From: Rhizaria sp. SCN 62-66
Taxonomy: Eukaryota
Length of the DNA: 64,000 bases
Direction of reading: 5' to 3'
Assembly: GCA_001724265.1 (NCBI GenBank)
Contig: MEDY01000223.1
Location: 1 to 64,000 of the forward strand
Below are positions 9,101 to 48,000 of this stretch, piece after piece. Each line of letters begins with the position of its first letter. Within the stretch, counting starts at the first letter, position 1. The position numbers were made by a program, and so were the translations under genes. The notes beneath the pieces are model-generated. The model saw only the letters and a program-made list of their open reading frames with translations, made no database searches and was not told the DNA's origin.

Positions 9101-9598
9101 GCTGACCACGAGTTGGCATTCGAGACCGAGACGGAGGCCATGCTTGCACAGGCGCGCCGCGCCGCCGCCGCCGCTGCCGCCGCTACCAAGGCCGGCGGGA
9201 ACGCCTCCGACGCCTCTGCCGCCGCCGCTGCCGCTGCCGCTGGTGCTGTCCCGACGCTCGACGACGCTGGCAACGAGCTGGACGTGATCGACGTCTTGGT
9301 GAGCCGCGCTAAGATCACGGCTGTGGCGCCTAGCGACGGCGTCAAGGTGGCCGCCAACGCCGTCGACAAGGTGCAGAACAAGAAGAACCGGCTCCTGGCT
9401 CTCGAGGGCGCGGCGATGAGCAAGAAGCAGATCTACCGGATGCGTAACAACATGCTCAAGGGCCAGGGCCGCGGACGGGACCTGTTCGAGGACGACGTCA
9501 ACATGGTCGGCACGGGCGGCGGCCAGGCCGCGAAACACCTGAACAAGGCATACGACCAGTACGGCAACCGGCTCAAGGTCAAGGACATGGAGAATTGA
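6187..9598 (+). CDS. LSG1: Large subunit GTPase 1 (circularly permuted GTPase, 60S biogenesis), ~1010 aa; exons 6187-6573, 6764-7117, 7307-9598
   Basis: IPRRPQW, WRRELA, TPFEKNIEVWKQLWRV, QIVDARNPL, NKSD (G4), GFPNVGKSS (G1), TPGKTKHFQT (G2), DCPGLVFP (G3). Phase-0 introns, TGA stop. Confidence 0.95.
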
Positions 9599-10163: not shown

Positions 10164-13100
10164 TTACCTCACCTGAGCCTTGTTCTTTGTCCCCCGGTAG
10201 TTCTCAAGCAGCGGAAACGCATGCTCGCGCACAAACTGCATCATATCCGGCGACGCACCGGCCACCCGCGCGCATGCCAGCGCCGCGTTATGCGCTGCTG
10301 CCTCCCAGCGGGGGTTGTCCCGTCGCACCAACAGCATCACGCACGCGCCGATTGCGTGCAAAACGCCAACGCCCTCAAGAGGCCCCGACGGCTGCACAGT
10401 CGCGACTTTGGCAGTAGTCGCTCCGGCAGCCGTCGCGGCGTCTAGGACAGCGGCCAGCCCCGCTTGTTGCTCTTCGAGCTTGGCCTTCTTAGCTGCGCCA
10501 GCCAGGAATGCGCCGTTGATATTGAGCGCCGATAGCACCACGCGCGCCGACGACAGCACAGCGTTGCGCACGAGAACCGACGGCGCTGCTGAGAAGTACT
10601 TGTTCCAGTCAGCCTGCGGCACCAGAGTAGGCGGTAACTGGGCAATTTTTATGACGATTTGCGCAAAGTTGCCCGCCGTCTGCGGCGACCACGAGTTGAG
10701 CGCAAGCGACACAACGCCGGCCACGCCCGAGCCTGACGCAAGAGTCACGGCGTCGTGGAGGCTGTCCTCGCCGCGATCGCCCCAGATGCAGAACTCGACG
10801 ACTCGCGCGGCCGCCAGCGCGCGCGCAACACCGGTGGGCAGTGCGCCGGCCGGCTCTGGCAGCGTGGTGCCGCGAGGCAGCCTCGCGTGGTCCGCAGTGG
10901 GGATCGGGTCAGTCGCCCGCGCCCACTGCTCCATGAACTCTCGGTCTACGTGCACCGCCCTGCCGCCGTTTGCCTGCGCGGCCGCAGACGCAGCCTTGCG
11001 CGCAGCATGCTGCGCAGCGGACGCTGCAGCTTTTGCGGACACGGGTGCCGGATCCGGGAAGTAAGCCAGCTCGCGTGACGCCTGCTGCGGGTCATGCTGG
11101 CACATGATTGCAACAGCGCGGAAGCACGAGTCGCTGAGCTCGATAAGCTCAGCCAAGCGTGCAACGGCGCTGAGCTGTCGCGTGCGCCGCTAGTCGGCCA
11201 ATGCATCTGTCTTATTGTCCTCCTTGCCAGCGGGTGCGGCTGAGGAGTTGTCCGGCAGCGTTGCAGCGACCACCGCGGCGATCCCGGTGCCCAACATAAA
11301 CCCGATGCCGTTGCGCGCAAGCATGTCGTCGCGTGCGGCAAGGCTGCCGGCGAGAAGCCGGGTGAGCAGGGTCACGGCAAGCCGCATCAGCGTAATGTCG
11401 AGCCCAGAGCACTGGACGACTGGCGGGCTAAGTCCGGACGGCGGGGGCGCTACAAGCGCGAAGAGCGCCCAGGGTAGCGCAGGCGTGGCTGCGACAATGC
11501 GCTCCGCAGAGTGCACGCCTTCGGAGACTGCCAAGTCTAGCAGCAGATCAAGACTTCTGCGCAACAACTTCATGTAACTGATGATCGTCGCCATTCCAGA
11601 CGCGTCTCTGTGCAAGGTTGCTTCCTTGGATGCCGTTAAGCGGTCAAGCACTGATACATTTAGAATACACAACAACGCGCGCAGCGCAACGCAAGCGACT
11701 ACCTCCAAAGAGTCCCCCTGATCTTTGGCCTCCCCGTCCTCGTTATCCTCCTTAGCAGCTAAAGCAAGGGCAGCAACACGATCAGGGGCAGCAGCAGAAG
11801 TTGCAGTGGCGTCGGCTTCTGTGTTAGTGCTATTGTTGCTCACGGGCGCAGGCAGACTTGCACTCGCAAGTTTTTTCCTTGAGAGCTCCTGGAGCACAGT
11901 CAACGCGCTACTCAGAACCTCTGACGCGGATGCCAAGGCGGCAAAGTTGAGCTGCCTGCCGACAGACATGCCCATGCTGGAGTGCGCCTTGACGCCGCAG
12001 CGCTCCACGTGCGTCCGCACGTACGCACACCACGCGCCGTCGGCAAACGGCGCGGCAGCCATCGCGGCGTAGCTGTTTTCCCGACCGTGTGCAGCCTGGT
12101 TTGCAACGTCAAGTGTTTTCCGCGCAGCCTCGCTCGCACGTTGCGCGTCATCGACCTTGAGCGCCAGCTCTGCCACGGCCGCCGCATCCGGCTGCGCTGC
12201 CGCCGCTGACTTACCGCCCTTGCCGCTCTTGGCGCCACCCTTAGCCGCCGCGGACCCCTTGGCGCCCTTTGACTGCGTGGCCTCATTGAGCTTCTTGCGT
12301 TCCCGCGCAAGCTGCTCCTTAGCGGCCTCTAGCGCGCGCGTTGATTGAGAGGCGGCAAGGTATGCGCGTGCAACAGAGGGCACTGTTGGCATCATCTGAA
12401 ACTCCGACGACTTCGTTGGCACCAGGCTGGGGAAACCGACACCGAAACCAAACTCCGGTCCCGCAATGGAGTGCTCGCTCGACGCGTCATCGGCCGCGTC
12501 CCAAGCGACGCGCAGCGTGTTTTGCAGCTCAGATATTAGCGTAATCCCCGGTTGCCAGCCGCGCTGAACGAGCGCCTTGAACTGCGTGTCGCGAGCAAGG
12601 CCCTCGGTCATGCTGAGGAGGTTTTGCGTCGCGCTACGCCGCACTAACCGTTGCCCGCTTGGCAGCACTGATGCCGAGCCAAAGGGGCGCGGCGCGCTTG
12701 TCCAGGCACCCGTGGAATCTGTTGGGCTTGCGGAAGTCGCGATCGCGTCTCCAAAGGCCTGTAGCTCATGTTTAGTGTACGAATCAACCTGGAGTGCAAT
12801 GGCTGTAGCCATCACCAGCGTCTCTAGCACATCGTCACTCGGGGGCGCCGCGTTGGCGTCAGGGGCAGCAGCAGCGGCGGTGCTGGCATCAGCGCCCGCA
12901 CTCGCGCTTACCGACAATGCCGGTGTTGCGGGTGTGGCCCCGCTGACGATGAGTTGCGAACGTGCTGTTTCTGACTGCAGTACATTGAGCAGCAGCCCAG
13001 TCGCCGCCTCAAGCATGACTGCAATTCCGCTCAGCCACGACTCAGCGGGCGCAGCGAAAGCGGCGTCAGCTGCAAACATGAGAGCAACACGAGTCTCACC

Positions 13101-16100
13101 GGCTGAAAAGCGCCCGCAGTCGCAATCGTTGTAGCTCTCCAGTCCTCTGAGGTCGATCATGCCAGGATGGGCGGCGTCGCCATCGACAAGCACGTGTACG
13201 CCTTGCATGATTGCGCCCTCGAGTTGCAGCAGCTGGTGCACAAGCCGAGCAACGACGCGGACCGCGCCCGCGCGATAGATGTTCTCGCGGCCCGTCTCCG
13301 TCGAAGCCGCGTTGCGCAGCGCCGACAATGCGCGGACCACCGTTAGCCACTGAGAGTCGATGGTCTCTGCAATACGCTCCTCAGCTATGTACGCGCTGAC
13401 AAGCTCGCTTGCTGCAGCGCCGTGGTGCACGCGCTCAGACCGCGGTGACGGCGCCGTCCAGGTCTCTTCGGCTTCACGCGCGGCGGCACGCATTCGGCGG
13501 AGCACCAAGTGGGCGATGACGTGGATCCCGGGCAGCATCGTCACAAAAAATACGAGTGCGCGCGTAAGCATGCGCTCAACGCCGAACTCGGCAAACTGGA
13601 TGCAGTCCGGGTGCGGCGCCCTGGCAAAGAAGTTGAAAACCGCGGCTGAAAACGGCACTTGGGACACGTACCGACTCCAGAGCTGCGTTTGTAGCTCGCG
13701 AAGCGGACCGAGAGCAACGCGCGGGTTGTCTGTCAGGAGTGCCGCGGTGTACTCTAGCTCGGAAGCCACAAAATTCGCCGACGACAGGATTGCGGTAACG
13801 CGTTGACTTGATCCCGCTAATCCTTGCATTGGCACCCTTGTTGAATTGGCACACCGTATTAGAAAGTCCCGCGCAACAGCCAGATCACTCGAAACGCGCG
13901 CGTTGATGTCGGCGGTCACACCTGGGATGTACGCAATTGTCTTCCACAGAATTTCCAGCTCGTCCCGCGGCACACTAGCAAGCGCAGCCCGCGCGACCGC
14001 CACCGGTACCAGGGGCTTGGCCAGCGGATTATCCCCGCGTGCTCCAACGGCGTGAAGGTCTGTGCCGCCGCGGCCGCCGTTGCGGTTTGAACTCCACGTG
14101 TTAAGGCCTCGGAAATAGTCGGTTTCGGAAACTGACTCAATGCCGTTCACGTAAAGCATTGCATAAGCTTGCGCAGGCTGCGACAGAGCGCCGAGACGTC
14201 CTCTTGCCATCAAATGACAAACCGACCGACTGTAATCGCGGCTTTGCGCCCTTTTGTCGACGTCCGCACCGAGACAGCCGACGTACTTGCTGCGCCAAAG
14301 AAAGGCGGCGCTATTGCGCCCTGCCGCAACAGCGGCGCTCTGATATCCTCCGTCACCGTCGCCGTCATCGTCGACACCACTGTCATCGAACCCGCTGAAG
14401 TTGCCCAGGATGCTGGTGTCGTTGCTGGAAACGTTTTCCCGACCGTTGTTGCTGCTGCAGGTTTCGGACAACTCGTCACTGTGGAAATATCCGTCGCCGC
14501 GGCTAGGGCGGCGGCTGTGCGTCTCTTTGAAGTCGCAATTGATATCCTTGCTTTTAGAATCACAGCTGCCACTGACGGCACTCTCCTTGTGACCGGCATC
14601 ATCCGGGTCAAGCCAAACAACATCGTCGTTCTCAGGGTCTTCACTGCTGCTGCTGATGTTGTCAGCGTCAATGTCCACACAGGAACCAGGCGCCGCAAAC
14701 GCAGACTCGAGCGCAACGCGACATGTACCGTAAGGCTGTGTTGTGTTTCCGTTCAGGCTTGGACTCATGTTGCGCACACTCTCTTGATCGCCTTTGCTTG
14801 AACGCATTTGTTGCTGCTGGTGCTGCTGGTCCTGGCGCTGTTGTTGCTGCTGTCTGGCTACTGCCCACGCCTCTTCATGCATCAGACTGGCAACAGACGC
14901 ATCGCTGCTCTGCTGTTCTAACATATGCGCAATCTTGTCGATCTCGGGCGGTACGGAGATGTTGATGTGTTCGCACAGCGCGGTGCACTTGTTGCAGTCA
15001 GACAGCGCGTCACCAAAGCTGCCCAACGCCTGCAATGCCTCGATGCGACGGAGATACGCTTTGACCGGCACTGGAACGCCGCCCTTGTCCTTCGCGGCGA
15101 CGGGAGACAGCTCACCATCCTCCAAGTACTCGAAGATGTTGATTGCAGTCGATGCGTCCTTGACCGCGTCTTGGTACTGCTGTAGTTTGTTGTGGCACGC
15201 GGCGCGGTTTGCGTAGTACGTCTTGTTGTCTTTGCAAATGTCAATAGCGGCAGAGTAGTATTGCGCAGCAAGAGTGTACTGCTCCTGCTTAAACGCATTG
15301 TTTCCGAGCTCTTTAAGCAGGTCTGCCTCGCGCGGCCCTTCATCACACGCTGCCACAGCCGTTTCTAGCGCAGCGAATGCGGAACTGTTCAGGTCAGCGT
15401 CCAGGATAAGCTTGAAAAGCTTGTCGCAGGCGTTGTTGATGTTGTTTTCAGCATCTATCAAAGAGACATACAAATAAATGGATTGCGAATAAGTCGAATA
15501 TAAGACACGTGTACTGTGAGACAACGTCAGCAAACACTACTAGTTTATGATGCACTTTGACATATTGACGTGCGACTTTGTTGATGCAAAACACTTACCC
15601 AGGTCCCAGAAGTCCCAAACCGCGTGGTTTGGGCCCTAGATACCGTGGTTCGAGAGGCCCATAGGTCCTGCTTCCATATGTAGGGACGCCCAGCCCTCCT
15701 CATCGCTTAACAGCCCACGGTCCTCGAGCCACTGCTTGCGCCGCTGACGGCGCCGCAAGATGACTCCGAGTTGCGTCGCCCTCGCCACACACGCGCGCAG
15801 CAGCCGCTCACGACGGGCAGCGGCGCACACGGTGGGCTCTGCGCAGCGCTGGCATGTAAGATTCGAGCTGTTGTAGTACTCCCACTTGCATTGCTCGCAG
15901 TAGCGCTGGCAAGCCTCGAGCATACCGTCATCGGCACGGCCAGCCGCAGGCAGTGCCGCATCCATCGGGGCGCTTGTCGGCTTGGGAGACGTACCAGAGC
16001 TCTCAGGAATACTTGCAGTGAAGTACGCGGACACCTTGGTGTCGTAGTCAGCGTCGGGGTCAAACGTGCCGTTGCAGATGTCATTGATAAGGCGGTTGAG

Positions 16101-16151
16101 GGCTGAGACCCGAGCGACTGCAGAAGCTTTAGTCGAGGGTGGGGTCGACAT
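10164..16151 (-). CDS. TTC12-like TPR + armadillo-repeat protein, copy 1 (~1947 aa if TAG is read as sense); exons 16151-15599 and 15454-10164; in-frame TAG at 15636-15638 and 11190-11192
   Basis: TPR carboxylate-clamp pattern (LKELGNNAFK..YYANRAAC..KAYLRR). C-terminus NAALACARVAGASPDMMQFVRE resembles, from memory, the TTC12 C-terminus. Phase-1 intron GTAAGT..TAG is shared with copy 3. The 3' end could splice at ~10172/10167 instead of ending at TAA 10164. Confidence 0.75.
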
Positions 16152-16805: not shown

Positions 16806-21164
<4,359 letters not shown>

Positions 21165-21850: not shown

Positions 21851-24800
21851 TCAGGCTGACTGTGACTGGCTATTTGATGACGCAGCTTCCCTTGCGTCAG
21901 TCTTTCCCCGATAGTTCTCAAGCAGCGGGAACGCATGCTCACGCACAAACTGCATAATCTCCGGTGACGCGCCGGCCAGCCGCGCGCACGCCAACGCGGC
22001 ATTCTGCGCTGTCGGCCCCCAATAGAGGTTGTTACACCGCATCAACAACATCACACAAGCGCCCACTGCGTGCAAAACGCCAACGCCCTGCAGGGCAGCG
22101 GAGGCGGAGGTGGAGGCGGAGGCGGAGGCGGACTTGCCTGCCGGCGCAACGCCGCGAGCCGCGTCTGGCAGCTTTAGCAGCGCGGCAAGCTCTATCTGTT
22201 GCTCTTCGAGCTTGGCCTTCTCGGCGGCGCCGTCGAGGAAATTCGGGTTGACGTCGAGCGAGGCTGATACAATGCGTGTGGACGTAAGGACGGCGGTGCG
22301 CACTAGTGCTGACGGGGCCGTGAAGAAGTGCTTGCTCCACTCGGTCTGTGAAACCATTGATGGCGGCAACTGTGCGACTTTGACGACGATTTGCGCAAAG
22401 TTGCCCGCCGTCTGCGGCGACCACGAGTTAAGCGCGAGTGTAACGAAGCCAGCGATGCCGGAGCCCGACGCGAGCGTCACCGCATCGTGGAGGCTGCCTC
22501 CGCCGCGGCTGCTCAGGTCGCAGAGCTCCACAACGCGCGCAGCGGCCAGTGCGCGCGCGACACCGGTGGGCAGCGAGTCGACGGGGACAGGAAGTGGAGA
22601 GCCCGCGGGGAGCTTCATGTGCTCCGCTCCCGGATACGAGCCCGCCGCCCGCTTCCACTGCTCCATGAACTCCTTGTTGATTTGCACAGCCTTGCCGGCG
22701 TTCTCCTTTGCTGCCTTGGTGGCAGCCTCGCGCGCGTCGGGCAGCGCGGCCGCGGCGGCGGCCTTGGCGCTGACCGGCGCCGGGGCTGGGAACAGATCGA
22801 GCTCGCGCGAGGCCTGGTGCGGGTCATGCTGGCACAGGATCGCGACAGCGCGGAAGCAGTGGTCGCTGAGAGCTTTCAAATCGTCCGACAACTGCATAGT
22901 TTCATCAGACACAAGCGTTGTCCCGCTGATCGGCAGTGTCGCGGCTGCGACGGCGGCGATGCCCGTGCCGAGCATCAGCCCAATGCCGTTGCGCGCAAGC
23001 ATGTCGTCGCGCGCGGCCAAGCTGCCGGCGAGAAGCCGTGTGAGCGCGGCTGCGACGCGCACCAGCGTGGCAAGATCCAGCCCCGTCGCGGGGACGGCGG
23101 AGGAGCTCATCGCGCTCGGCGGCGGCGCAAGCAGCGCGAAGAGCGCCCAGGGCAGCGCGGGCGTGGCTGCGACAATGCGCTCTGTCGACCGGGGGCCCGC
23201 GGAGGCGGCCAGCTCCAGCAAGAGGACTAGGGACACCAGCAGCAGCGATGAGTTGCTCTGCAGAATGCTCATCGGCGTCGCGTTCGAGGCGTGAGTCTCT
23301 GCCGCCGCCTTAAAGCGGATGTGCAGCGGTGCGCTAAGTACGGCGGCAGCGGCGCGCAAAGCGACGCGCGCCACGAGCTCCAGACACGTTTCCTTGACGT
23401 TCGTCTCCGTGTCTGCGTCTGCGTCAGCGTCAGCGTCGGAGTCGTCGAAATCAGAGTCTAAGCCGGCCTCGGTGTCGTCTCGCTGGCGCCACCGGACGGG
23501 CTTGTTGGCGAGGTACAGACACACGGCCTCGTCGGCCACGAGGAAGGTCGTCGTCTGGAGGACAGTAAAGAGCCGTGCCGCGCTCGACGTCGCGGCCACG
23601 TTCTGCAGCGGTTGGTTCACGGGGACGTTCTTGGCCCCTGCAAGCCGGACACCGCTGGTCTCGAGGAGACGCTGCGCGTACTCGCTCCACACGGTGTCGG
23701 TGAAGGGCGCGGTGACGAGCGAGGCGTACTTGTTTTCCATCTCGACGGCTGTCTTGTGGGCGCCGTCAAGCTTCTCCTTTGCAGCGAGGGCCGAGAGACG
23801 CGCTAAGGCCGCCCTCTTAGCAAGCTCGATCGTCTCAACATTCTGCGCCAGTGACGACGACGATGATGATGAAGAAGAAGATGAGGAGGTCGACTTGCCA
23901 CCCTTGACAGTCGTTTTGCTGTTCTTTGACTGCTGCTGTTGCTGCTGCTGCGCCTGCGGCTGCTGTGCGGCCTCGTTTTTCTTATTATCGCGTGTGACCT
24001 GCTCCATCAGGGAGTCCGCCTCCCGCTGCAGCCGCGTGAAGTCATAGTACGCACGGGCGACGGCCGGCGCAGTGAACGGAAAGCGTGGCTCATGGGTATT
24101 CGCGCAGGGAACGCCGACACCGAAACCGAGCTCAGCCCCCGCGACCGAGTGCTCGCGCGCCGCGTCCCTACCGTCATCGCCGCCGCCGCGGATGGCCTTG
24201 ACGAGCTCGGACAGGAGCAGACGGCCCACAATCCACCCGCCGCGCACCAAAGCGCGGAGAGCCGGGTCACACGCAAACCTGGACGCCACGGTCAGCAGGC
24301 CCTGGGCAGCGCTGCGCCGCACGAGCCGTTGCGCCGTCGGCAGCACAGACACGCCCCCCACAGGCACGCCCACAACTACGCCCACAGCGACGGCTCCGGC
24401 TCCGGCTCCGGCTGCTGCAGACACTGTTGCTGTTAATGTTGTGGGAGTAGCGGAAGCGTCCTGTGCGCTTTGGAGCTCTGCATTGCGAGCCATGGCGTCG
24501 TAGGTGGCCTGGGTATACCGGTCGGCGCGGAGCGACAACATGGACGCCGTGATCAGTCGCCCCAGCAAGCAGTCGTCGTCGTCTGCGTTCCGCGGCTTGG
24601 CATCAGCCTCAGTCTCAGCATCTGCGTTGGTGTCGGCGTTAGTGTTGCCGTTGCCGTTAACGTCGCCGCCGCCCTTGTCTTTGCTGGCGGCGGTTACCGA
24701 CTGCACATACCTGGTGACGATCTCCGTGTGGACGTCATCCGACTTCAATGTCTCACACAGCAGCCCCGCTGCGGCGTCGAGCGCGACCCCGACCGCGCTA

Positions 24801-27800
24801 AGCCACGACTGCACGGGCGCCGCCAGCGCGGCGTCGGCAACAAACATCGCTGTCGTCCGGAGGGCCTGTTCGTCGCGTAACAGCGCGGTCGTCACGCCGT
24901 CATCGGGCGCGCCCAGGCCGCCGACGTCAACCGTCTCCGGCGTCGCCTCACCACCGCGCGCGCGAACGGCCACAGCCTGCATGAGGCACCGCTCCAGATG
25001 CAGCAACATGATCACAAGCCGTGTAACGACGCTGAGCACGCCCGAGTGCAACATGGCCTCCCGGCCGCCCTCGGCCGCAGCGACCGCGCGCAGGGCCAGC
25101 AGCACGCGCACGAGCGTCGTCCAGCGGCCGTCGACGCACTGCGCCAGCGCCTCGTCCTCGAGCGTCGCCTGGTCAAGCTGCCGCAAGCCCGCGCTGCCGC
25201 GCACCTGCCCCCGCAGCAACGGCGTCGACGCCTCTCGCGCGGCGGCGCGCGTGGCCGTCACGCGCTGCTGCACCACATCGGTGATAGTATGCAGTCCAGG
25301 CAGCATGGTTACGGCGACGAGCAGCGCGCGGGCCAAAACGCGCATCTTGGGCGCGCTGGCGGCGATGGCGGCGCGCTCGGCCAGCGGCAGCCGCGGAAAG
25401 CTGTTCAGCGCCGCCGGCACCAGAGGCAACTGGTCGACCGTCTTAGCCCACGCGAGCGTCTGGGCAGCGCGCAGGGCACCCGCGGCGACGCGCGGGATGA
25501 GGCCCGCTTTGACGGTGTGGTGAAACCGCGCCGCCTCGTCGCCAGCGATGGCAACAATCTGCCTCAGACGGGCGTGGAGTGCCGCCGCGCCTTCACCGCC
25601 GCCGAAGTCGACCCCGCCGGCGCTCTCGCCCAGCGGCACTTCGAGCGGACCGGTGTAGATCTGCAGAATGTTCAGCGCGGCATCCGGGTCGGTCGACACG
25701 CGCGCAGCCAGGTCCTCCGCCACGAACGGAATGTGTGCGAGCATCACGCTGAGGATATGAAGCTCTTGGTGAGGCACGCCAGCCAACGCGTGGCTGGCGA
25801 AGCTCTCGCGCACTTTGTCCGCCACCGCGACGTCAGCAGTGCCGCCGCTGCCGCCGCCGCTGCCACCGCCGGCGTTTGTGCGCAGCGACGTTGCGCCGGC
25901 CCTGCTGCCGCCGCGGCCGCCGCCGAAGCCGCCGGTGCCAGACGCGTTCATGACGCTGATGTAGCTCAGACGGACTTTGTCGAACTGCTGGGTGACTGAG
26001 GTTGCGTAGCCGCGGGCTTGCTCCGAGAGCTGATCCATCCGGGTGTAGATCATGTTGTTGTATATTGCACGCGCGCGCTCGCGGCTGCGGCCACGGGCGC
26101 CTACGTCCGCCCCTGAGGTGCCGGCAAAGGAGCGCAGCCACATGAAGCCATTTCTGTTATTAGTGCCCTCATTTTCGCCTTCGTTGCCGCCTTTGTTGTT
26201 GTGGTTGTTGCCGTTGTTGCTGCTGTTGCTGCTGTTGTTGTTGCTGTCGCCACTGTTGCGAGCCTTGTTGTAGCCGTGACTGTAGCCGTCATAAACGCCG
26301 TCAGAAAAACTCTCTGGGTCACTCGAACTGCTAGTAATGTTCTTGATATGATTACTGATCCGTTGAGCACTGTCAGTGTCGAATTCGGCAATGTCATTCT
26401 CTTTTTCAGGATTACCGTCAATATTGCCCTTACCATCGCCATTACCAGTGCTGCGGCCGTTAAGCTTGCCAGTCAAGCTCAAGTTTTTGCTGACCCGGCT
26501 GTTCGCAGCGCCAACGACAGCGTCGTTGTCAGCACCAGCGCCAGCGCCAGTGTCATTGCCGTTACTACTGCCCTTGGTGCAGTTGGCGTTCACCCGCCAC
26601 CCGTCGAGCGAGCCCCCCGCCGCAGCGCGCTCGCGGCCTGCGCGGTAGGCCTCGCAGCTCTGTGCGCGCACGGCCTCGGTCAGCCGCGCGAGCTCCGGGG
26701 GAGGCGCGAGCCCGTTGGCGCGGCACAGCGCGGCGCACTCGTCGCAGTCAACCAGCGCGTCGTCAAACCACCCCAATGCCTGGAGAGCTTCGATGCGGCG
26801 GATGTAGGCCTTGATCGGCACTGGCACGCCGCCACCGCCGCCGCCGCTGCTGCTGCTGCTGTTGCTAGACGCTGTTGCTGTGGCCGCTGCTGCTGGGGTG
26901 GTTGTGGCGGCACAGGCGGCGGTAGATAGCACGAGCTTACCGTCCTCCAAGTACTTAAAGATGTCGATAGCCGTCGAAGTGTCCTTGACAACATCCTGAT
27001 GGCGCATCAGCTTACTGTAGCACACCGCACGGTTTGCGTAATACACCTTGTTGTCCCGGCAGATGTTAATCGCGGCTGAGTAATTCCGCGCTGCAAAGTC
27101 GTACTGCTCTTTTTCAAACGCGACATTGCCCAGCGTCTTGAGCCTCTCAGCCTCGGCCGTGCGCCCAGCGCGATTCTCGCGTTCCAGGATCATGAGTTTC
27201 TCGACGCCGGAGAATTCTGCGCTGGCCAGGTCGCCCGACATAAACAGCTTGAAGAGCAACGAGTCTGCTTCAGAGATGTCGTGTGCCTCGTCTACCAAAA
27301 AGAGATATGATGCGCAGGTTAATGGGAAAGACAAATGATAATGATGTGGTGAGCTTACGGATGTCGGAATATGCTGCACTTTGCAACGCAATAATACACT
27401 ATGAAATATGAAACACGCAGTGAGCAGTGATCCAGCACACAGGTAAGAATATGCGTCAAAAGTTAAAGCTTTGTTGTTAGCTGTTCTGTCGCAAAACGTA
27501 CCCATCTATCCCCAAAAGTCCCACACTTCGTAGTTGATGCCAGAGGGCTAGCTCACAAGAGCCGCAGCAACCGGAGCCGTTTTTTTCTTCCCGCCGCCGC
27601 CGCTGCCGCTGTTACCCGCGCCCGCGCCGGTCGAGGAGTCCGTGGCCGTTGCGGAGCTCTTGTCACGCGCGTCCCGATCGGCCTGCCACTTGGTATGCTG
27701 CCGCTGCCGCATCTTGCAGACGCCGATGAACGTGGCTTTGTCCGCGCACACGCGCATCAACCGCTCGAGGCGCGCCAAGGCCGGGACGGTGGGGCCGGCG

Positions 27801-28114
27801 CAACGCTGGCAGGTGATGTCAGTGGGACGGTAGAACTCCCACTTGCAGTGCTCGCAGTAGCGCTGGCAAGCTGCAGCCATGCCGTTGCCAGCGCAGCCAG
27901 CCGCGGGCAAATCAGAGTCAGCAGTGGCTGAGGTTGAGCAATGTGTTGTCGGCGCTTCGGCGAACGAGGTAGGCGACTTTGCGTGGAAGTATTCCGGCAG
28001 CTTCGTGGCATAGTCCGCGTCGCGGTCGATGGTTCCGGCGATGATACCCTGGGTCAGCTTGTTGATCGCGGCACATCGGCCAAACGCACCATCGTCAGGT
28101 TCGGTGGTCGACAT
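21851..28114 (-). CDS. TTC12-like TPR + armadillo-repeat protein, copy 3 (~2017 aa); exons 28114-27502 and 27291-21851; in-frame TAG at 27548-27550 and 27506-27508
   Basis: Same architecture and same phase-1 intron as copy 1 (..VWDFW..|DEAHDIS vs ..VWDFW..|DAENNIN). TPR LKTLGNVAFEK..YYANRAVC..KAYIRR. TGA stop. Confidence 0.8.
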
Positions 28115-31658: not shown

Positions 31659-33406
31659 TCAGAGGTCGTCCTCGCCGTCGGGGACGAAGGCGGCGTTGGC
31701 GGCCTCGAGCTCCTGGGCGTACTGGGCCATCTGGGCCTCGTCGACGGCGGCCTCCTGTAGATACACACAAAACGCAAACGAAAAAGCGCGCGATAGATTA
31801 AGGAGTATGCAAATGTGGGGGAAAGAAAGAGAAAGAAAAAGAAAAAGCAAGGGAAATTGGTCAGCGTGGGATCATAACAGGCGCAAAATGCGCGATAATA
31901 TGTTCATATAGATCCAGAAAGACCGCAAAAAGGCTAACTCAGGAGTGATTGTAGTCCTTAAATGCAACGAGAGTATAGAGAAAGCGTGGTTAGAGTGGTA
32001 ATAGTGCATACCTGGGGGACGAGGGCGATCTCCTTCTCGAACTTGAGGTCAGCCTTGCCGGTGAGCTTGTACAGCAGGTACCAGAAGGGCTTCTCGTAGT
32101 GGTAGTGGGACTTGGCGGAGATGTCGTAGTACTGGATAGTGCGCTTGCGGTGGAACGAAATGTCGTTGGGGAGCACTGTAGAATAGAGAGGAGTGAAGAA
32201 CATATGGTAAAAGATATAAGAGTGGATTTGACGCACAAGATAGAATCATATAGAAAAAAAAGTAAAATATAATAAAGATTAAGTAAAATTGGACCTAGAT
32301 ATGTGCGTTTTGTTGTTATTGCACGTACCCTCGCGGTTCTTGCAGTCAACCTTGTTGCCGCAGAGGACGATGGGGATGCCAGAGCACACGCGGTCGAGGT
32401 CCTTGTACCAGGTGAGGACATTCTTGTAGGTCACACGGGTGGTGACGTCGAACATGATGATAGCAGCCTCACCGCCGATGTAGTAGCCCTCGCGGAGGTG
32501 GCCGAAACGCTCCTGGCCGGCGGTGTCCCAGCAGTTGAAGGTGAGCTCACCATAGTTGGTGGGGAAAGTGAGGGAGCGAACCTAAAAGCCGTGGAAAAAA
32601 CATAACAGCAAAGTGTGGTGAGTTAAAATTTGAAACATCAAGAAACCATACAAGAATCTACAGTTTTCTAGATAAATTCGGTTTAGATGCAAAGATATAG
32701 AGGGAATTAAGAACGTACCTCGACACCGATGGTGGGGATGTAGCGCTTCTCGAACTCACCGAGACGGTGACGCTTGATGAAGGTGGTCTTGCCGACACCG
32801 CCGTCGCCGACGAGGACAAGCTTGAACTCAGGACGCTGCTGCTCAGTAGCCTGTGAGGTAGTAAAGCGCGCAGATCGTAACGAGAGCGAGGGAGAAAGGT
32901 GGATGGTTGGCAGCAATCGTGAGGCCAGAGAAAGGGCGGGAACAGTGACGAGGACCGTCAGGAGAGGAAAGATAGCGAGGTTGGAGAAAAGGTATAAAGC
33001 AAAGGGAGGGTAAAAATGTGAGACAATGCGTGTAGTGAATAAGATGAGACTGGTAGGGGTGAGATTCGTGGTCAGATTTGAACTTTGAGAAGCAAGGCAG
33101 AGGGACCAGTTCGAGAAGCCGGCGCTTAAGGTTGTATCACATGCCTTGATACAACCAACAAAGCGGAGCTATACAGACGGCAATAGGATCAAACAAGTCT
33201 TATCAGCGTCCTCAAGACATATGGACGGCAAAAGCGCGTTGCTGGAGATCGCTGAAAGTGTGATCAAGCAGTTCCGACCTGGAGGAGTCCGTTGGCACGG
33301 ACGTCGCATCGCAAACATCGGAATCGGCGTTCCTCACCGCACGATCACGGGAAATACATTTGTTACAAAACACACAACAAAGTCATGAAGCTATTAGACG
33401 TACCAT
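31659..33406 (-). CDS. RAN: GTP-binding nuclear protein Ran (215 aa); exons 33406-33404 (ATG only), 32850-32719, 32581-32329, 32175-32012, 31754-31659
   Basis: [52 protein letters not shown], acidic tail PDGEDDL. Spliced length is typical of Ran. The ATG exon is inferred. Confidence 0.95.
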
Positions 33407-33884
33407 TTTTCTTTGTAGTAAGCACGGTGACGAGAAATGGCTTTGCTCGTCATCGCGCGGTTGCGGCCGGGGCCCAGAGCCAGACCGGCAACGAAATTTA
33501 AGCCGTGGCCCACGGTCACATGGCCACCACCACGAACGGAAAGCCATTCAAACTTCGCATATGTCCTCTCTCTCTCCACCACGATTCGAAATCAGCACTT
33601 ATGACATCAAAACAAAATCGATTATATTTAACGAAGCGTGGTTTATGATTACAACCTACTTTTTTTCGGCCTGAAGCACTAGGTACGCGGTATCTCTTTC
33701 GTTCAGGACCCGCTTCAAGTGATTCAAATGGGGAACATGTGGGCTTAGAGTGAGTATAAAGCACACTAAACAAAGCCAACTAAAAGTCCCATTTTGAAAT
33801 AAAAGTTATTAATGCAGTATCTATCTGAAAATGCGGTACTATCTCCTCAACGTACAATATATACCGCGGATTCGTCCTGATTAT

Positions 33885-36126
33885 TCATCCGACGCGAGGG
33901 ATACCGATCCTGGCCGCCGAGGGCATCGTGACAGCCAGCGCCGCCGCCCCCGCCGCCTCGGCATCGGCCTCCGCCGCCGCCTTTGCCTCCGCCACCGCCT
34001 GGCCCACGCTGTGCGCGTCAGCCGCCTGCTGCTGACTCAGCTTCTCGTCCTCGGTCGCGATTTGCCCGAAGAGCGACTGCAAGCTGTTCAAGTTCTTCGC
34101 CGCCGCCGTCGTCATCGCAGTGAACTCCTGCACCGACAACCCGTCGAGCGCCTTGTACAGCTCCAGCTTCTTGTTCAGCGCGCGCACGCTCGTGTCCAGC
34201 GCGGCGGCCTGCTTCTTCGCCGCCGCCGCCTCGCCCCGGGCAGCGTCTCGCTCCCGGATCGTCTTGGCCGTAGTGGCTTCCAGCACCGCCTGCTGCGCCG
34301 CCAACGCCGTCTTATCGCTCACGGCGGCGTCCGCGCGCGACCGCTGCTGCGCCAGCGCGTCTTGGGCCTCCGTGGCGGCAGCCTCGGCGGCGTCCAGCGA
34401 GAGACGCAGCGTGGAGAGCTGCTCCTGGGCGTCGCGGAGCTCAGCCTCGGCCCGGGCCGCCACGTCCTCAGCAGCCCTAATGTTCGCAATTAAAAAGTCA
34501 GATATATCGCCATAGATATGAGCTAGTGAGATAACAACTTGATACAACAATATACTGTAGCATGATATGCATTCAAGTTAAATATATGTTCATGAAAATG
34601 CAATCAAGGCGAGATATAAGAGCACTTCAATTTAGTTGCTGTGCTATTCTTGCTGCAAGGATTATGTCTTTGCGACAACAACATACCTAGCACGCTGCAT
34701 TTGCGCAGCTGCAACCTTCTCGCTTTCGCCGGCCTTGGCCACCGCAGCCAGCATCTCCCTTTCGCGGTTGCGCCAGATGTTGTTTTCCCTCTCGGCCTCC
34801 TTCGCCCTCACTGCGACTGCCCTATGCTCTGCGATCGCTGTCTCAAGCGCCTCCTCGGCGTGAAGTTTAGCCGCCTCCGCGCGCCGCTCCCCGGCCAGCG
34901 CGCGCGCCGCCGCCGCCTCGGCCTCCGCAACGGCCTCCTGCAGCTCCTCCACGCGATCGCTCTCACTGCCCGCATGCCGCAGCGCCGCCGCCTCGGCCTC
35001 TGCGGCGGCGGCCTGCTTCCGCAGCTGCGCCAGCTCAGCGTCAGCTACGGCCCGCGCCGCCTCCACCGCCGCCAGCGCCCGCCCCGTCGCAGCCTGTCCG
35101 GCCTCCGCGCGCGCGGCCGCGGCAGTCAGAGTAGCCGCGGTAGCCGCGGCGGCGGCGGCGGCGCGCATAGAGTCGGACTGGGCACTCTCGGAGGCCTCGG
35201 CGGCGGTCGCGACGGCGAGGTTTAAGTTAAGCCGCGTCTGGGCCAGGAGGGTCGCCAAGACGATGGGGTCGCTCTCTTCGAGCAAGATAGCGTCTGCGTC
35301 GGTCGTCGTCGCGTCGTTGTCTTTGTCGTTGTTGTTGTTGAAGATGCTGATGCCACGGGTGGATGCCAACTGCTGATGCGTCTGAGACCGACGGGACGCC
35401 TGCTCCTGCTCTAACGTGGCCAGCGCGCGTTTGTGAGCCTCATTGTTGGCCTCGGCGGTTACGAGCAGCTCCTGCAGCTCCTTAACGCGGCGCTTGAAGT
35501 GGCTTTCCATCGTGTCGTACTTTAGGCGCAGCTGGCGGATCACCTCGTCCAGCGGGGCCTGGAGTAAAAAGCAAAGGATTCCAACACAAAGATTAATGAG
35601 CTCGATAATAAAACGTTGCTATAATATAAAAAGTTCATGTTTCTATCCGTAGACTAAAAGGTTATTATTATAAGTGCCAATATTGTGGAGATATATTCGT
35701 TGATGTGAGATGACGTACCTCGGGGACTAGTTCGAGCCCAGCAGCGGCGTTGGCACGGGGAGCGGCGGCCTTCTTGAGCAAATTGAGCTCTAGCTCAAGG
35801 AAGTAAATCTGCTGCTGCAGGTTGACGACATACTCGCGCTAGAGAGCCTTGTCACGCTTTTGCGCTGCCGTGACGGCAGCTATCGGTGGTGAGGACAAGA
35901 TTGAGGTCAGACAGAAAGACTGGTGTGAGTGGGCTATCACGAGTGACAGAAGCGTACAAAGCGTGATCCAAGGCATGAAAGCACAGATAAAGCATGATTA
36001 GGCTATTGACGTACAGTTTTGCGGGTTCGCAGAGCGTGAGCCCTGGAAGCTGGACCAGGAGCCCGTGGGCGTGGCCGCGCCGGCAGGCGTGCCAGAGCCA
36101 GCCGAGCCAGTGTTCCTGGGGGGCAT
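33885..36126 (-). CDS. Coiled-coil protein (~578 aa); exons 36126-36015, 35879-35719, 35558-34687, 34476-33885; in-frame TAG at 35839-35841
   Basis: Splice phases 1/0/2 are mutually consistent. Exon 2 reads SAVTAAQKRDKAL*REYVVNLQQQIYFLELELNLLKK. Later exons are Ala/Glu-rich helical sequence. TGA stop. Confidence 0.75.
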
Positions 36127-36378
36127 TGTTTATCAGGCTAGACGCACTCGACTGAGGAATTAATTAAAAGTTTGCCAACAGTAAACAAACAGTAGTTGTT
36201 ATGCCAAAGCTTTTGTCGACTTGACGAGTGTAGACGGCAAGAGACTCACGTTTTGTTCAAGTCACGACTCGCTTGCCAAAGTAGCCGTTTTTTTCTTTGG
36301 GGCGAGATCAGAGCAGATGGGCAGTAGACTAACTTTGAACGTCACGAACGCGTCAGTTTGATCGTGAATACTGGAGCA

Positions 36379-39300
36379 ATGTCTTCTGTAGACAAGCTTC
36401 TTGACGAAACTGACCCGTCACAGTTTCTCTCTGCGCAATTCAGCGCGTGGAATGAACCAGGGGTATCCCATGACTCGGCTCCCCGCGGTGCCCCCGCCGC
36501 CTCCGCCTCTGCCGCCGCCGCCGCTGCCGCAGGCAATGCGGGGGCTGCCTCCGCGCACCACGGCGACCACAGCGATGATGACGACCTGAGAGACCTATTT
36601 CCCGTGTCGCACCGCCGGAACAACGACTCTGGCCACGCTGGCGCTGGCGCTAACAGCAACACATACAACACTGCTGCTGCTGCTTCGATTAGTGCCCGGG
36701 GTCACGCGAATGTCAGTGTCTCAGTCTCAGCATCTGCCTCTATGTCGTCCCTGGCGCTCCCCCCATCAGAATCAGTCTCTCCCATGAGCAAGACCCCTGC
36801 CCACGGCACCAGCAGCAGCAGCAGCACAGCAACAGCAGCAGGGGCAGGGGCAGGGGCAGGAGCAGGAGCAAATGCTTCGATGTTGCAACATCCACACAGC
36901 AAAGCAGGTGGCGGTCTCACCTCATCCCGCCCCTTCGCCTCCACCGCAGCCCTTTCTGCGGCGTCGTCGCAGCTGTTCGACTCGTTCAACACCAACTCAC
37001 GGGTTAACCTAGCCATTATCGAGCCTGTGGCGACCGCCGCCTCAGCCGCCACCAGGGCCCCTCGGCCCCCTCCGCCGCGGTACGTGGCGCTAAACAGCAC
37101 TTTGCAAGAATTTATTACATGTCTTACTTGCGCAACACTGTATTTGATTACCTACTCAACTGTCATCTTTATTTGTGCTCAGGATTGTCATCATTTATCT
37201 CATTTTGTCTTCTGTGCTGTTTGCCTTGCTTTGTTTTTGTCCTCCATTTAGCCCGATCAAGCTGAGCTTGCCCGTGCCTGCCCCGGCCCCCCACAAAGAC
37301 GCCGCCGCCGCCGGCAACACCATTCAGTTACCGTCGCCGTCCCAGGCGCAGGCGCAGCGGGCAGCGTATTTCGCGCCCCCATCCGTGATCGCTGCCATCA
37401 CCCCCAGCAACTCTAGCGCTCATCCCGCCAGCAGCGGCAACACCAACACCGATAACAGCAGCGGCGGCGGCGGCAGCAATGGGAGTAGCAGCGCGAGCTC
37501 CGTTGGTGGCAATATCACGGTGATGTTCGACAGCTATGGCCAACTGCCGCCGTCGGCCCGCTACCAGTCGATGCCTGCGTTCAACGTCGCCAAATTCATG
37601 CGCTCTCAGTCAAATAACTCAACTAACAACAGTAGCAGCGGTAGCAACTCAGGGGTAGGGTACTTACACGTTGTGTCCCCCTCCACTTACACCCCGGGGA
37701 TGGCAGCGGGTAACAACCGCGTTCCCGGTAATGGCGGCGGCCTAGGTTCCGACGGCAGCGGCACTTACACGGATCTAAGTGGCGCGTACATGAGCGACAA
37801 CGAAACCACCGAAGTTAGCCACAGCTACCTCTACAACACCTATAACCACTATAATAATAATAATAACAACAACAACAACAACAACAACAGCAGCAGCAGC
37901 AGCAGTGTTGGTGGAGGCATTACGGTGGGCGGAATCGCGTATGACCCCCTCAGCCCTGCCGGCGACATCAGCGGCCCTCCTGGCTCCCACAGCAACGCCA
38001 ACAGTGGCCACAACGGGGGCAATAATGGCGGCAACAACAGCGTCAGCGGCGCCCCAGTGCTGACCCTAGAGGACCGGCAGGCCCTGGCCATCGCCACCGC
38101 GACCCCGCCCTCGCTGCGCTCGCAGCCACAAATTGCACTGCTCGCGGCATTCCTGCGGTCACTGCCGTTTTTCGCGACGTTCCCGGCCGAGCTGTGCACG
38201 GCCCTGACCATGGCGTGTTCAATCAGGCGGTACGAGGCGCGGGAGATCGTCATGGGGCCCCAGCAAGCGACCGTGGGCAGCGTGGGTACCACGGGTTCCA
38301 GCAATAACAACAACAAGGTCACTGTGAGCACCAGCTCGAGTTCGAGTGCGAGTGCTGCTGACGAGGACGCTGATGAGAACGCAGTTGTGTCTGAGAATAG
38401 CGGCGATCTGCTCGTGTTGCTGTGGGGCGGGGTTGGCAGCGCGCACGTGGCGAGTAATGACCCCATTTTGCTGTCAAAACAACATCAAAAGCAACAGCAG
38501 CAGCAACAGGGGCAGCAAGAACAACAACAGCAACAGCAACAGACGAGTAACGATCCTCGGCAGAGCAAGTTTGGCAACAAAGCCAAGTTTGACGCCATTG
38601 CCGCTGCCGTCGCAGCCAACAACCGCGGCTCTCTGATCGCTGGCCTGCCGGCGTCCGTCACGGCGGCACTCGCGCGGTCACCAGTCGTCGCCGCCGCCGC
38701 GGCCGGTGCTGACGCAGCCTCTGCTGCTCACGGTCATCCCCCCGCCCACGGTCACTCTCAAGGCGGCCAGGGTAAGAATGAGGGGACTGTATTGCCGCCG
38801 GTGCGCGGTGCCGCCGCCACTAACAGCATTAGCGCGAGTGCGCTCAAGACGGTCGGCAGCACGGATAGCCTGGCCAGTAATGACAGCAACAACAGCAGTG
38901 CTGCTGCTGCTGCGATCGCACCTGGCTCGACCATGAGGTACATTAGCGACCAACATTAAACTTGATATTTGTCTCCTATTTATCTGCTAATCACTATTAA
39001 AATTTAGAATTTACGTGAATGGTATATAGAGTTAACGTTCAACCACTTTCTCACTCACTAAGTATCTCAAAAACGCTTTTTCTCTGCTTTTTCTTCCGTG
39101 TTGTTAACCCGTCTGTGAAGGTTCTTGCCCTATCAAGGCGTTGTCCGCTCCGGTGGCTCCCTCGGCACCCTCGTCATGCCCACTGTTGACCTCACCTCGA
39201 CAGCCGCAACTACATCCGCCGCAACAGCAACAGCTGACGCTAATACCAGCAACAACAGCAGCAACACGAGTGACACGAATAATAACAAGAATAACGCTGT

Positions 39301-45000: not shown

Positions 45001-48000
45001 ATGTACGGCCACACGGGCCGCGAGTCCCTCGAGAAGGTCTAGCTCATTCGGCTCGAAACCCAACGCAACATCGACCTGATAGCCCGCAACCTCCGCGGCT
45101 CATCCCCGGCCTACCACCAGCCCCCGCCGTCGCAGCCGCTGTACTCGCCCTCGCAGACCTACTCCCCGCACCACCTTCCCTACGGCGGCGGCGGTGCGGG
45201 CGGCCACCACGCGCTATTCGCCGCGACCTCGCCTTCCGCCGGCCTCGCAGCCTCACACGGCCACGGCCACGGTCACGGTTTCGCTGCTTATGGGGGCGGC
45301 AACGGAGGGCATCACCCGCATCACCCCAACGCGGCCGGCATCCACGACGGCGCCCTTGTCGTTGTCTCTCCTTCCAACTCCAACAACAGCGGTAACGCCT
45401 ACCCCCTGGTGTTGAGCTCCTCAGACGCCGCCGCCGCCGCCGCCACCGCCGCCGCCGCTGCCGACGGACAGATGCAGTTGCAACGCACTCTTGACCAGGT
45501 CCTCGACAGGCTCAGCAACGTCGAGCGCGCCACCATCGCCAACAACAACAACAACAATAGCATTAACAATGCGGCGAACGCGAGTGTTGGTGCCAGTAAC
45601 CGGAGCGTTGCCGGCGGGAACAATAGCCTCGCGCCTTCAGACTCAACCCTCTCTCTAAACAACAACAACAACGGGGGTAATGCTAACAGTGCTGACACTT
45701 CTGCCGTGAGTCTGTTGCTGCAGCAGCACGACTCCAAACTCTCGAGCCACGACACCGCCATTGCCGCCGTCGCCGATAAAGCCGCCTCTGCCGCCGCCAC
45801 CGCCGACAAGGCCCTCTCGGGCGCTGAGAAGGCAGCCACATCGGCTGACGCCGCCGCCGCCACCGCTGCCACCGCCGCCGCCGCTGCTGACAAGGCTACT
45901 GCGAGTGCTGAGAGGGCAGTGGCCGGCCTGGACCGTGTCACTGGCACCGCCGACCGGGCTCTGACCCTCGCACAAGACTCACGCGTCACCACGGAACGCG
46001 CGCAGATGACTGCTGAGGCCGCGAAGTCGACTGCGGAGTCCGCGAAATCGACTGCTGAGTCAGCAAAGAGCTCGGCAGTGACCGCAACTAGTGCCGCGGA
46101 CAAGCTGCAGCAGACGGCCGAGGCCGCGAAACAGACTGCCGAGTCAGCAAAGTCGGGCTCCGAGGCCGCGAGAGCGACCGCTGAGTCAGCCAAGCAGACT
46201 GCTGAGTCAGCAAAAAGCACCGCCGAGTCTGCCCGCGTCGGTCTCGACGCGGCACGGTCAGCGGCCGACGCCTTCAAGGCCAGCTGCGAGAGCGCTAAGA
46301 GCGCCGCGGACACTGCCAAGTCGACCAGCGAGGCCGCGCGGGCCGCCGCGGACCTCGCCAAGGTGACGGCGGACGCGGCGGCGGCGGCAGCGGCAGAGGC
46401 CGGCAAAGCGGCCACGGGGGCGGTGGCCAGGGTCGCGGCGGTCGAGGCCGCGTTGGCTCTCGCCCCGGCTCAGCTCTCGGTGCTGGCAAACAAGATGGAC
46501 AATGTCGAGCGTCGACTCAGCGGCAATGGTAATCTCAGTAGCTACAATGGCGGCTACAACAACAACGATCTTAACGCCTCTGGGTACAACAGCCACCCCC
46601 ATCTGCAACAACAGCAGAACCACAGTCACAGTCTCGGGCACAGTCACTTCTCCCCTTTTGCCGCTCCCCCCACTGCTGGCGCAATGGCTATGGGTGGCTC
46701 TGCGAGCGACATGGCCAGCATCAACGCCGCTGTCGCCGCCGCTGTGGCCGCCGCGCTGGCCTCCCGAGACGGCGAAGTCGCCGCACTCAAGTCCCACGTG
46801 ACTGCGCTGTCGGCGTCTGTCTCCGCGCTCACAGAGGCCTCGGCCGCCGCGCAAGTGACCGTGGGCGGCCTCAAGGCCACGGTGGGGGCGCTCGAGGAGA
46901 CGGTGGGCAGCGCGGAAGTCAAGGCCGCCGCCGCGGAGGCCAAGGCCGCCGAGGCTGCTGCTGCCGCCGCCGCTGCTGAGGCCAAGGCTGCTGATGCTGA
47001 GGCCAAGGCCGCCGAGGCTGAGGCCAAGGCCGAAGCTGGCGTTCAGAAGGCCCGGGAGCAAGAGAGAGCGTTGCGTAGTGCGTTAGCAGACGCCCTCCGT
47101 GGCATCGCTGCTAGCGGCGGCAACAACAATAGCAACAACAATGGTCATATTGCTGAGTCAGCAAAGCCGGGAATGATGGCTATGGCTGACATCACGACGA
47201 TCGACGACGAGGCTGCGACGGTTATGGCGAGCAACGAAGCCTTCGCTGTGGTCGTCGAGTCGGCGCCTGTCTTGGCGATCCCCAGCAGCGACACCGCTGA
47301 CTCTGCTGCTGCTGGTATGGCCGTCGCTGATGACGACGAGTACAATTACTCGTTCGACCAGTCTATGCCAGTCCCTCTGCCTTCGACTAACAGCTCTAAG
47401 CCCGCCGCGACCACTGCTGTTGCTGCTGAGGCTGGGACTGAGACTGCTGTTGCGTCGAGTAGTGAAGCTATGGCTGCTGAGCTGGCTACTCTCCGCTCGC
47501 AGCTCAATTCCGCCACAAACGACCTCACCGCCCTCAAAACGTCCATGGGCTCGGTTCAATCCACCGTCGACTCGGTCCAGACCACTGTGGGCGCCGTGCA
47601 AGCGACTGTAGGCGCCCTCCAAGTGACCGTGGGTGAGGTCCAGGTGACCGTGGGCGAGCTGCAGGCGACTGTGAGCAGCCAGGCGGAGGTCGTAGAGGAC
47701 GTGTACCAGCGCCAGGGCGGGCAGGAGGACGCGCTGGCTAGTCAGGTGATGCTCTTTAGCTCGGATTTGCATGATCTTTACAACCAAGTCGGCCGTTTCC
47801 CGCCCAAGTCTACCAGCAACAACAACAACGCCTCGAACGGTAACGGCACCTCTGAGACAGAGACTGCTGCTGCTAAGCCTGAGTCGGATGCCTCTGAGAC
47901 TGCGACTGGCAAGCCTGAGGCTGGTAAGACGGAGGCCGAGACTGTTGCTGTGTCCGCGCTGACTCAGCGCGTGTCGAGACTCGAGGGCCAGCTCGCTCGT

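Follow-up and report, generated by a model that had tools for sequence, protein, structure and literature searches.

The DNA analyzed here is a 64,000-nucleotide (nt) stretch of contig MEDY01000223.1 (positions 1 to 64,000; hereafter the window). Its minus strand carries a four-exon gene for a coiled-coil protein in which the second exon contains an in-frame TAG. Exon 1 (36126..36015, 112 nt) begins at 36126 with the sole ATG found between its donor and the divergent neighbouring gene. It closes in phase 1 at a GTACGT donor at 36014. Intron 1 (36014..35880, 135 nt, GTACGT...GATAG, GC content 0.47) was placed from the frame and the splice signals. Exon 2 (35879..35719, 161 nt) has canonical splice sites and is followed by intron 2 (35718..35559, 160 nt, GTACGT...CCAG, GC 0.32), exon 3 (35558..34687), intron 3 (34686..34477, 210 nt, GTATGT...TTAG) and exon 4 (34476..33885), which closes with a TGA at 33887..33885. 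The spliced frame comprises 578 codons. Its sole internal stop is the TAG at 35841..35839, codon 51, around which the exon-2 peptide reads ...AAQKRDKAL*REYVVNLQQQIYFLELELNLLKK (the asterisk marks the TAG; the shorter citation is ...KRDKAL*REYVVNLQQQIYFLELE).

A sequence-only reading had given this exon a length of 161 nt, a frame fixed by both flanking intron phases and a peptide running KRDKAL into the stop. The gene model reproduces both the length and the peptide, and the in-frame TAG in exon 2 is a confirmed observation. An alternative explanation would be a wrong gene model, with the TAG in an intron or 5' untranslated region outside the translated frame. Many TAGs that precede open frames in the window, for example in LSG1, Ran and Arp2, are plain splice acceptors and were not counted as in-frame. 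If the exon-2 TAG served as an acceptor in the same way (exon start 35838), splicing from the phase-1 donor would lead to a TGA. The earlier reading had dismissed this acceptor on the same grounds and rightly so, although the TGA is the 14th codon past the junction and does not lie 13 codons later as it had stated. Direct inspection of the sequence of exon 1 finds no phase-0 donor, and there is no ATG between the TAG and the conserved motif that follows it.

RNA and independent DNA cover the same region. Contigs of four sequencing runs were compared with window positions 33600-36500. A cDNA contig from run X6 (record 23, 336 nt, depth 4.7) joins 35557 to 35718, with exactly the 160 nt of intron 2 removed, and beyond the junction is colinear with 35718-35875 with no differences, TAG included. 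It extends 37 nt past the look-alike acceptor at 35838, which was unused in this cDNA molecule. Since intron 2 has been removed from a contig that carries the TAG, the TAG is present in spliced RNA. Two contigs of the polyA metatranscriptome X7 match the later exons with no differences (record 28, 34831-34982 in exon 3; record 27, 34080-34446 in exon 4). A DNA-like contig from run X4 (record 7), in which introns are kept, matches 35811-36403 with no differences and an identical TAG; the sole X4 difference over the whole stretch compared is an A>G at 35653, within intron 2. X4 and X6 belong to two other studies, and since the TAG is identical in the DNA-like X4 contig and the X6 cDNA, a sequencing error is excluded. 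A search for the exact pattern surrounding the exon-2 TAG, with the codon itself wild-carded, returned no matches in genome contigs and none in viral contigs.

Homologues were collected in two ways. When the peptide of exon 2 was used in a word-indexed search, 289 candidates yielded 2 relatives, with Glu and Ala at the TAG column. An exhaustive phmmer search of 1.84 billion representatives returned 18 proteins at E <= 0.001, 17 of them with the motif NLQQQ.YFLELE. The homologue set (n = 19) combines these 17 motif carriers with the 2 word-index relatives and leaves out P0140, which has no motif. The TAG column is readable because the exhaustive search added homologues to the initial two. The family shares the motif EY[IV]xNLQQQxYFLELELNLLK followed by PLDxV..L..KY, and the protein encoded here carries it and is colinear with the closest homologue, P0125 (519 aa, 81% identity in exon 2 and 46-53% elsewhere). 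P0125 reads VQRRDKQLEREYVTNLQQQIYFLELELNLVKKATAPRAAGNGLELNPEAPLDGVIAQLRHKYDTMEAHYKRRVKELQE across the exon-2 region and continues unbroken across the exon 2/3 and 3/4 junctions to the C-terminus, including the junction of intron 3. This colinearity validates the gene model, in agreement with the match of exon 3 to polyA RNA and the spliced exon 2/3 junction, and implies that QKRDKAL before the TAG is coding in the same frame as the sequence after it. The upstream residues are themselves kept in frame (QKRDKAL here, QRRDKQL and QKRDRQL in homologues), which excludes the alternative acceptor at 35838. With both sides of the TAG conserved in one frame, the conserved-looking motif noticed by the sequence-only reading turns out to belong to conserved coding sequence in 19 homologues, and its view of the TAG as in-frame in a coding exon is supported. 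A wrong gene model could still draw on the exon 1/2 junction, which lies outside RNA coverage, and on the many acceptor TAGs elsewhere in the window; given the broken frame of the alternative, the colinear cDNA and the two-sided conservation, we regard it as the most improbable of the explanations considered here.

A Pfam scan of the four exons together with P0002 and P0003 gave nothing above curated cut-offs, and Pfam offers no model for the coiled-coil family. Only two members carry names, a 'coiled-coil protein' from Andalucia godoyi and a Chromosphaera perkinsii gene model. Atlas look-alikes are generic coiled-coil proteins, among which CCDC57 scores 0.93 with 122 shared features and is a lead only. 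Upstream, a spacer of ~250 bp (36127-36378) separates the coiled-coil gene from a divergent gene for a cyclic nucleotide monophosphate (cNMP)-binding protein with its ATG at 36379; the arrangement suggests a shared bidirectional promoter.

The earlier reading had picked the exon-2 site as the best place to identify the encoded residue, and the homologue search bears this out. The TAG column holds Glu in 11 of the 19 homologues, Gln in 3, Ala in 2, and His, Arg and Thr in one each. Glu occupies the column in the six closest homologues and in all six sequences with the extended context RDxQL-E-[KRQ][ED]Y. None of the 19 has a hydrophobic residue (Leu, Ile, Val or Met) at the column, and none has Trp. 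Summing BLOSUM62 scores over the exon-2 column and four columns from the paralogs described below gives 58 for Glu, 32 for Gln, 14 for Asp, 7 for Lys and -64 for Leu. At the paralog columns, Asp or Glu is found opposite three further TAG sites, and the second TAG in exon 1 of paralog C aligns with an Asp of paralog A. Acidic residues make up 3 of the 9 paralog residues aligned to the first four sites, compared to a background of 10.4% (p 0.058). Pyrrolysine and selenocysteine were also considered as meanings of the codon and were set aside on general grounds. If the TAG is translated, these alignments suggest that the residue is most likely Glu, which takes about half of the confidence that we place in translation itself, and possibly Gln, which is second to Glu.

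The same column and cDNA bear on mRNA editing, which could turn UAG into a sense codon either by U-to-C change (giving CAG) or by adenosine-to-inosine (A-to-I) change (giving UGG). A-to-I editing of UAG to UGG is known from sexual-stage transcripts of some ascomycetes, where in-frame TAGs are limited to some genes, and the limitation of TAGs to some genes in the window matches this pattern. The three homologues with Gln at the column would also suit a CAG product. Against this, the only cDNA contig over the site keeps the TAG with no differences, at a depth of 4.7 and in an assembly type that drops minority variants, and Trp, the product of A-to-I editing, is absent from the column. We consider editing very unlikely.

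The TAG is not confined to this gene. In total, the window has nine in-frame TAGs, spread over five genes that belong to three unrelated families; seven lie in a tandem three-gene family. The earlier claim that the pattern extends beyond the duplicated family thus holds, and a third, unrelated gene now shows it as well. Paralog A (16151..10164, minus strand) has 2 exons and 1947 codons, ends in TAA and has TAGs at 15638..15636 and 11192..11190. Paralog B (21164..16806, minus) is a single exon of 1452 codons that ends in TAA, with TAGs at 20876..20874, 20390..20388 and 17402..17400. Paralog C (28114..21851, minus) has 2 exons and 2017 codons, ends in TGA and has TAGs at 27550..27548 and 27508..27506. 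The remaining gene, on the plus strand, encodes a low-complexity protein of 1906 codons; it starts with an ATG at 45001 and has a TAG at codon 14 (45001..45042 for the start as a whole, TAG 45040..45042). All 13 codons before this TAG end in G or C, the frame is then open for 1906 codons, and the next in-frame ATG is at codon 144 of it. Each of the five TAG-bearing gene models starts with ATG and ends in TAA or TGA, and together their 7914 modelled codons contain no in-frame TAA or TGA and no frameshift. A log-odds scan of codon usage, meant to detect additional in-frame stops, was dropped as noisy, as antisense frames passed it and 5% of true coding windows scored <=0.

The three paralogs are 45-46% identical overall and 62-64% identical in the C-terminal domain. 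A and C share a Cys-rich exon 1 that appears zinc-ribbon-like, a putative TPR-like region and a long domain ending QFVREHAFPLLENYRG; the TPR label is a reading of the sequence and not a Pfam assignment. Paralog B keeps the MSTT start and is without the zinc-ribbon-like and TPR-like parts. Exon 1 of A and C has the same order throughout: ATG, a Cys-rich segment (ACQRYCExCKWExY...TCQRCA), TAG, VWDFW, a canonical donor and a phase-1 splice. The VWDFW segment differs between A and C at third codon positions only. In paralog A, every other ATG lies downstream of the predicted TPR-like region that forms the N-terminal part of exon 2 and is conserved with C. The exon-1 TAGs of A and C would have to be decoded to connect the only available ATG with the main frame and, in A, for the TPR-like region to be produced. 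The two exon-1 TAGs (15636-15638 and 27548-27550) lie a few codons before VWDFW, with an offset of 6 nt. They may be one ancestral TAG retained in both genes; such retention would be surprising if synonymous codons could replace it freely.

Independent DNA is also available for paralog B. All three of its TAGs are identical in two metagenome contigs from JGI (L001 and L002), which were the only matches in a metagenome scan with the C-terminal alignment of the paralogs; they come from the same organism, and the scan yielded no relatives or new genes. An (AAC)n tract in paralog B (~40 Asn; 19247-19258) is 12 nt shorter in L001, the sole difference in 5.8 kb.

Several of these observations concern nonsense mutation under the standard code, in which the TAGs would mark dead or dying genes and the exon-2 TAG would be a GAG-to-TAG change at a conserved Glu. 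The nearest homologues do have Glu at the column, one transversion away. TAG is also the commonest product of random nonsense mutation in these genes, and paralog B is without the N-terminal zinc-ribbon-like and TPR-like regions of A and C. On the other side, five genes with premature stops would have to lie in 64 kb, yet nowhere in their modelled codons is there a frameshift, TAA or TGA; paralog B alone has three TAGs and remains otherwise intact over its full 1452 codons. The motif after the exon-2 TAG is intact, the coiled-coil gene is transcribed and spliced, and the TAG is fixed across samples of different studies. Random changes would not gather at the 5' ends of genes, as the TAGs do (see below), and would not account for the absence of TAG from all 15 gene ends. 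We judge this explanation improbable.

Fifteen gene ends can be identified in the window: 8 use TGA, 7 use TAA and none uses TAG. The TGA ends belong to the putative gene ending at 1760, the PAQR-like gene, LSG1, paralog C, the ankyrin/EF-hand gene, Ran, the coiled-coil gene and a 1892-codon gene. The TAA ends belong to paralogs A and B, the cNMP-binding gene, the MFS transporter, the 1906/513-codon gene, Alg14 and Arp2. If TAG normally made up 20, 25 or 30% of stops, the chance of zero TAG ends would be 0.044, 0.018 or 0.007, calculated for n = 14 and slightly lower for 15. UAG is thus missing from true termination sites in what is a small sample of 15 genes. Within genes it is rare: a count over 12,384 confident codons gave 5 TAGs, compared to 7 for ATA, the rarest ordinary codon.

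The TAGs are also unevenly placed. Seven of the nine fall within the first 260 codons of the gene concerned, at relative positions 0.01-0.18, with the other two at 0.82 and 0.86; under uniform placement this 5' clustering has p 8.5e-5, evaluated post hoc. A C directly follows 6 of the 9 TAGs, again a post hoc observation, with p 0.005 against the frequency of C at first codon positions (0.222), 0.018 against codons after GAG and 0.11 against codons after CAG. At the 15 true stops, the next base is always a purine (G in 9, A in 6). A C after the stop codon is the weakest termination context in eukaryotes.

These patterns bear on programmed or leaky readthrough of UAG under the standard code, in which UAG would in general still be a stop and individual genes would produce short and long products or attenuate their expression. 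The 5' clustering and the contrast between C after the TAGs and purines after true stops both fit, as does the nearly identical exon-1 position of the TAGs in A and C. So does a very stable hairpin in paralog A, which starts 7 nt downstream of the 11192 TAG (-47.9 kcal/mol, z -3.5, none of 200 shuffles as stable). That TAG sits in an insertion specific to A (11100-11192, minus). However, among 8 tested sites it is the only one followed by an unusually stable structure (z is -0.75 at the exon-2 site). Paralog B would require reading through three times in a row. In two genes the short products would be 13 to 50 residues long, with no evident use. C is also frequent after CAG (41% of cases, p 0.11), and TAG is absent from all 15 gene ends. 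We consider readthrough unlikely, and the least unlikely of the alternatives under the standard code.

We conclude that UAG is probably translated as an amino acid in this organism, with UAA and UGA still terminating translation. The case rests on a combination: conservation across the exon-2 TAG, five intact TAG-bearing genes in 64 kb, the three TAGs of paralog B, the need to decode the exon-1 TAGs of A and C, the absence of TAG from gene ends and the rarity of the codon. The exon-2 TAG would then be an ordinary though rare sense codon in a conserved N-terminal segment. It might be decoded by a tRNA with anticodon CUA, one base from tRNA-Glu(CUC) or tRNA-Gln(CUG), alongside a release factor eRF1, encoded outside the window, that recognizes UAG poorly. 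Failure of decoding early in a gene would be cheap, so that TAGs could be tolerated near 5' ends. The 5' bias and the following C suggest that decoding still competes with termination, as in a young or incomplete reassignment.

A number of results weigh against translation of UAG or against a single meaning for it. tRNA and Rfam scans of the 64-kb window gave 0 hits. The window's conserved genes, namely Ran, Arp2, LSG1, Alg14, the MFS transporter and the 1892-codon gene, are free of TAGs. One paralogous family accounts for seven of the nine sites, and in it the exon-1 sites of A and C are perhaps one inherited site. The RNA evidence at the exon-2 site consists of one cDNA contig with a depth of only 4.7, and this contig does not reach the start of exon 2, from which 4 nt separate it, leaving the exon 1/2 junction outside its support. 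The residue assignment draws on one good column, with Glu in 11 of 19; the paralog columns aligned with MAFFT are variable, with the residue pairs (R,Y), (N,G), (S,E) and (I,D) opposite TAGs. The closest homologue has Glu at the exon-2 site, and one GAG-to-TAG nonsense change would give the same picture. Finally, the finding that all nine internal stops are TAG is weaker than it appears, because in these genes, rich in G and C at third codon positions, 62-64% of possible nonsense substitutions yield TAG; nine of nine then has p ~0.016, not (1/3)^9.

The window is eukaryotic nuclear DNA with a GC content of ~58%, GC-rich exons, and AT-rich introns of 135-210 nt that start with GTACGT or GTATGT and end in YAG. 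The 58% GC, the intron lengths and the donors suggest that the organism is neither a ciliate nor a fornicate. The same DNA occurs in Logan contigs from wastewater, bioreactor and activated-sludge runs: 13 of 15 listed runs, from 9 studies, carry part of it, and 4 of the 15 contain half or more of the query words. Runs with shares <0.2 and without a sequence comparison were not counted as habitat evidence.

Conserved genes give limited guidance on the lineage. For the GTPase domain of LSG1, the best named matches are an MMETSP chlorarachniophyte, Amorphochlora, Bigelowiella and Plasmodiophora (46-56% identity), and higher-scoring matches are metagenome proteins (62-74% identity). In a quick, single-gene LSG1 tree, the window sequence groups with nine metagenome sequences (P0005-P0013) with a support of 98 in the Shimodaira-Hasegawa-like approximate likelihood ratio test (SH-aLRT); the clade is unplaced and the branch of the window sequence is very long. 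The LSG1 group (window 7307-9598 and P0005-P0013) apparently represents an unsampled eukaryotic clade. Arp2 has an 89%-identical relative without a taxon name. There are no named taxa among its 120 best matches, where the only names are one JGI function label and EukProt gene ids. The lineage therefore stays unplaced, with a weak hint in the LSG1 matches of an affinity to Rhizaria. The Ran GTPase gene (31659-33170, minus) comprises four or more exons, contains no in-frame TAG and is unusually divergent in the C-terminal half of its product.

Known codes in which UAG means Glu include those of peritrich ciliates (NCBI table 30) and Blastocrithidia (table 31), while UAR means Gln in table 6. The ciliate PL0344 reportedly reads UAG as Glu and UAA as Lys. 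The peritrich, Blastocrithidia and PL0344 codes share the likely meaning of UAG with the window; they differ in that UAA is reassigned there, whereas TAA ends 7 of the 15 genes here and no in-frame TAA occurs in the 7914 codons examined for a joint reassignment of UAA. Blastocrithidia and PL0344 are the subjects of PMC12153298 and PMC10553269, respectively. An Amoeboaphelidium-type code changes UAA too (PMC11687900); this code was rejected for the window, where TAA ends genes.

Reassignment of UAG alone is reported solely for Leu and Gln (PMC5304391, PMC11687900). UAG alone means Leu in the uncultured rhizarian exLh and Gln in Iotanema spirale (PMC5304391), and means Leu in three phyllopharyngean ciliates and Gln in Hartmannula and Trochilia (PMC11687900). 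The exLh code resembles the one proposed here in that UAG alone is changed and UAA and UGA terminate, and the best named LSG1 matches of the window are likewise rhizarian. The exLh report finds no UAG among 71 true stops and counts 384 UAGs in 71 genes, with UAG rare in highly expressed genes (PMC5304391). UAG is much rarer here, with 9 sites in the window, and Leu does not suit the conserved column, as both the lack of hydrophobic residues in all 19 homologues and the strongly negative Leu score indicate. Iotanema, Hartmannula and Trochilia also change UAG alone, and Gln is the second-best residue here. A Gln code would further agree with the observation that C follows CAG as often as it follows the TAGs of the window; it agrees less well with the conserved column, which Glu fits better. 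Condylostoma and karyorelict ciliates have ambiguous codes in which the same codon is stop or sense depending on position (bioRxiv 10.1101/2022.04.12.488043). The placement of the in-frame stops in the window is likewise position-dependent, with hints of competition with termination. In those ciliates, however, the same codon also ends genes, whereas TAG ends none of the 15 genes here. Among the papers listed by full-text literature searches, none describes a UAG-to-Glu code in a cercozoan or rhizarian. We put forward, tentatively and with more doubt than confidence, a nuclear code not yet described: UAG would mean Glu, UAA and UGA would be stops, and the code would perhaps be at an early ambiguous stage, possibly in a rhizarian wastewater protist. 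In such a code UAG would be as scarce as the rarest sense codon, limited mostly to the initial tenth of long genes, where a decoding failure is cheapest, and preferentially followed by C.

Nuclear genetic codes rarely change, and ciliates account for most known cases. If the proposal is true, the window would document a new code, with UAG alone read as Glu, in a lineage that only metagenomes have revealed. Proteins of this organism would be truncated or split by gene callers that assume the standard code. The combination of rarity, 5' bias and context bias of its TAGs would then offer a natural test between the ambiguous-intermediate and codon-capture models of codon reassignment.

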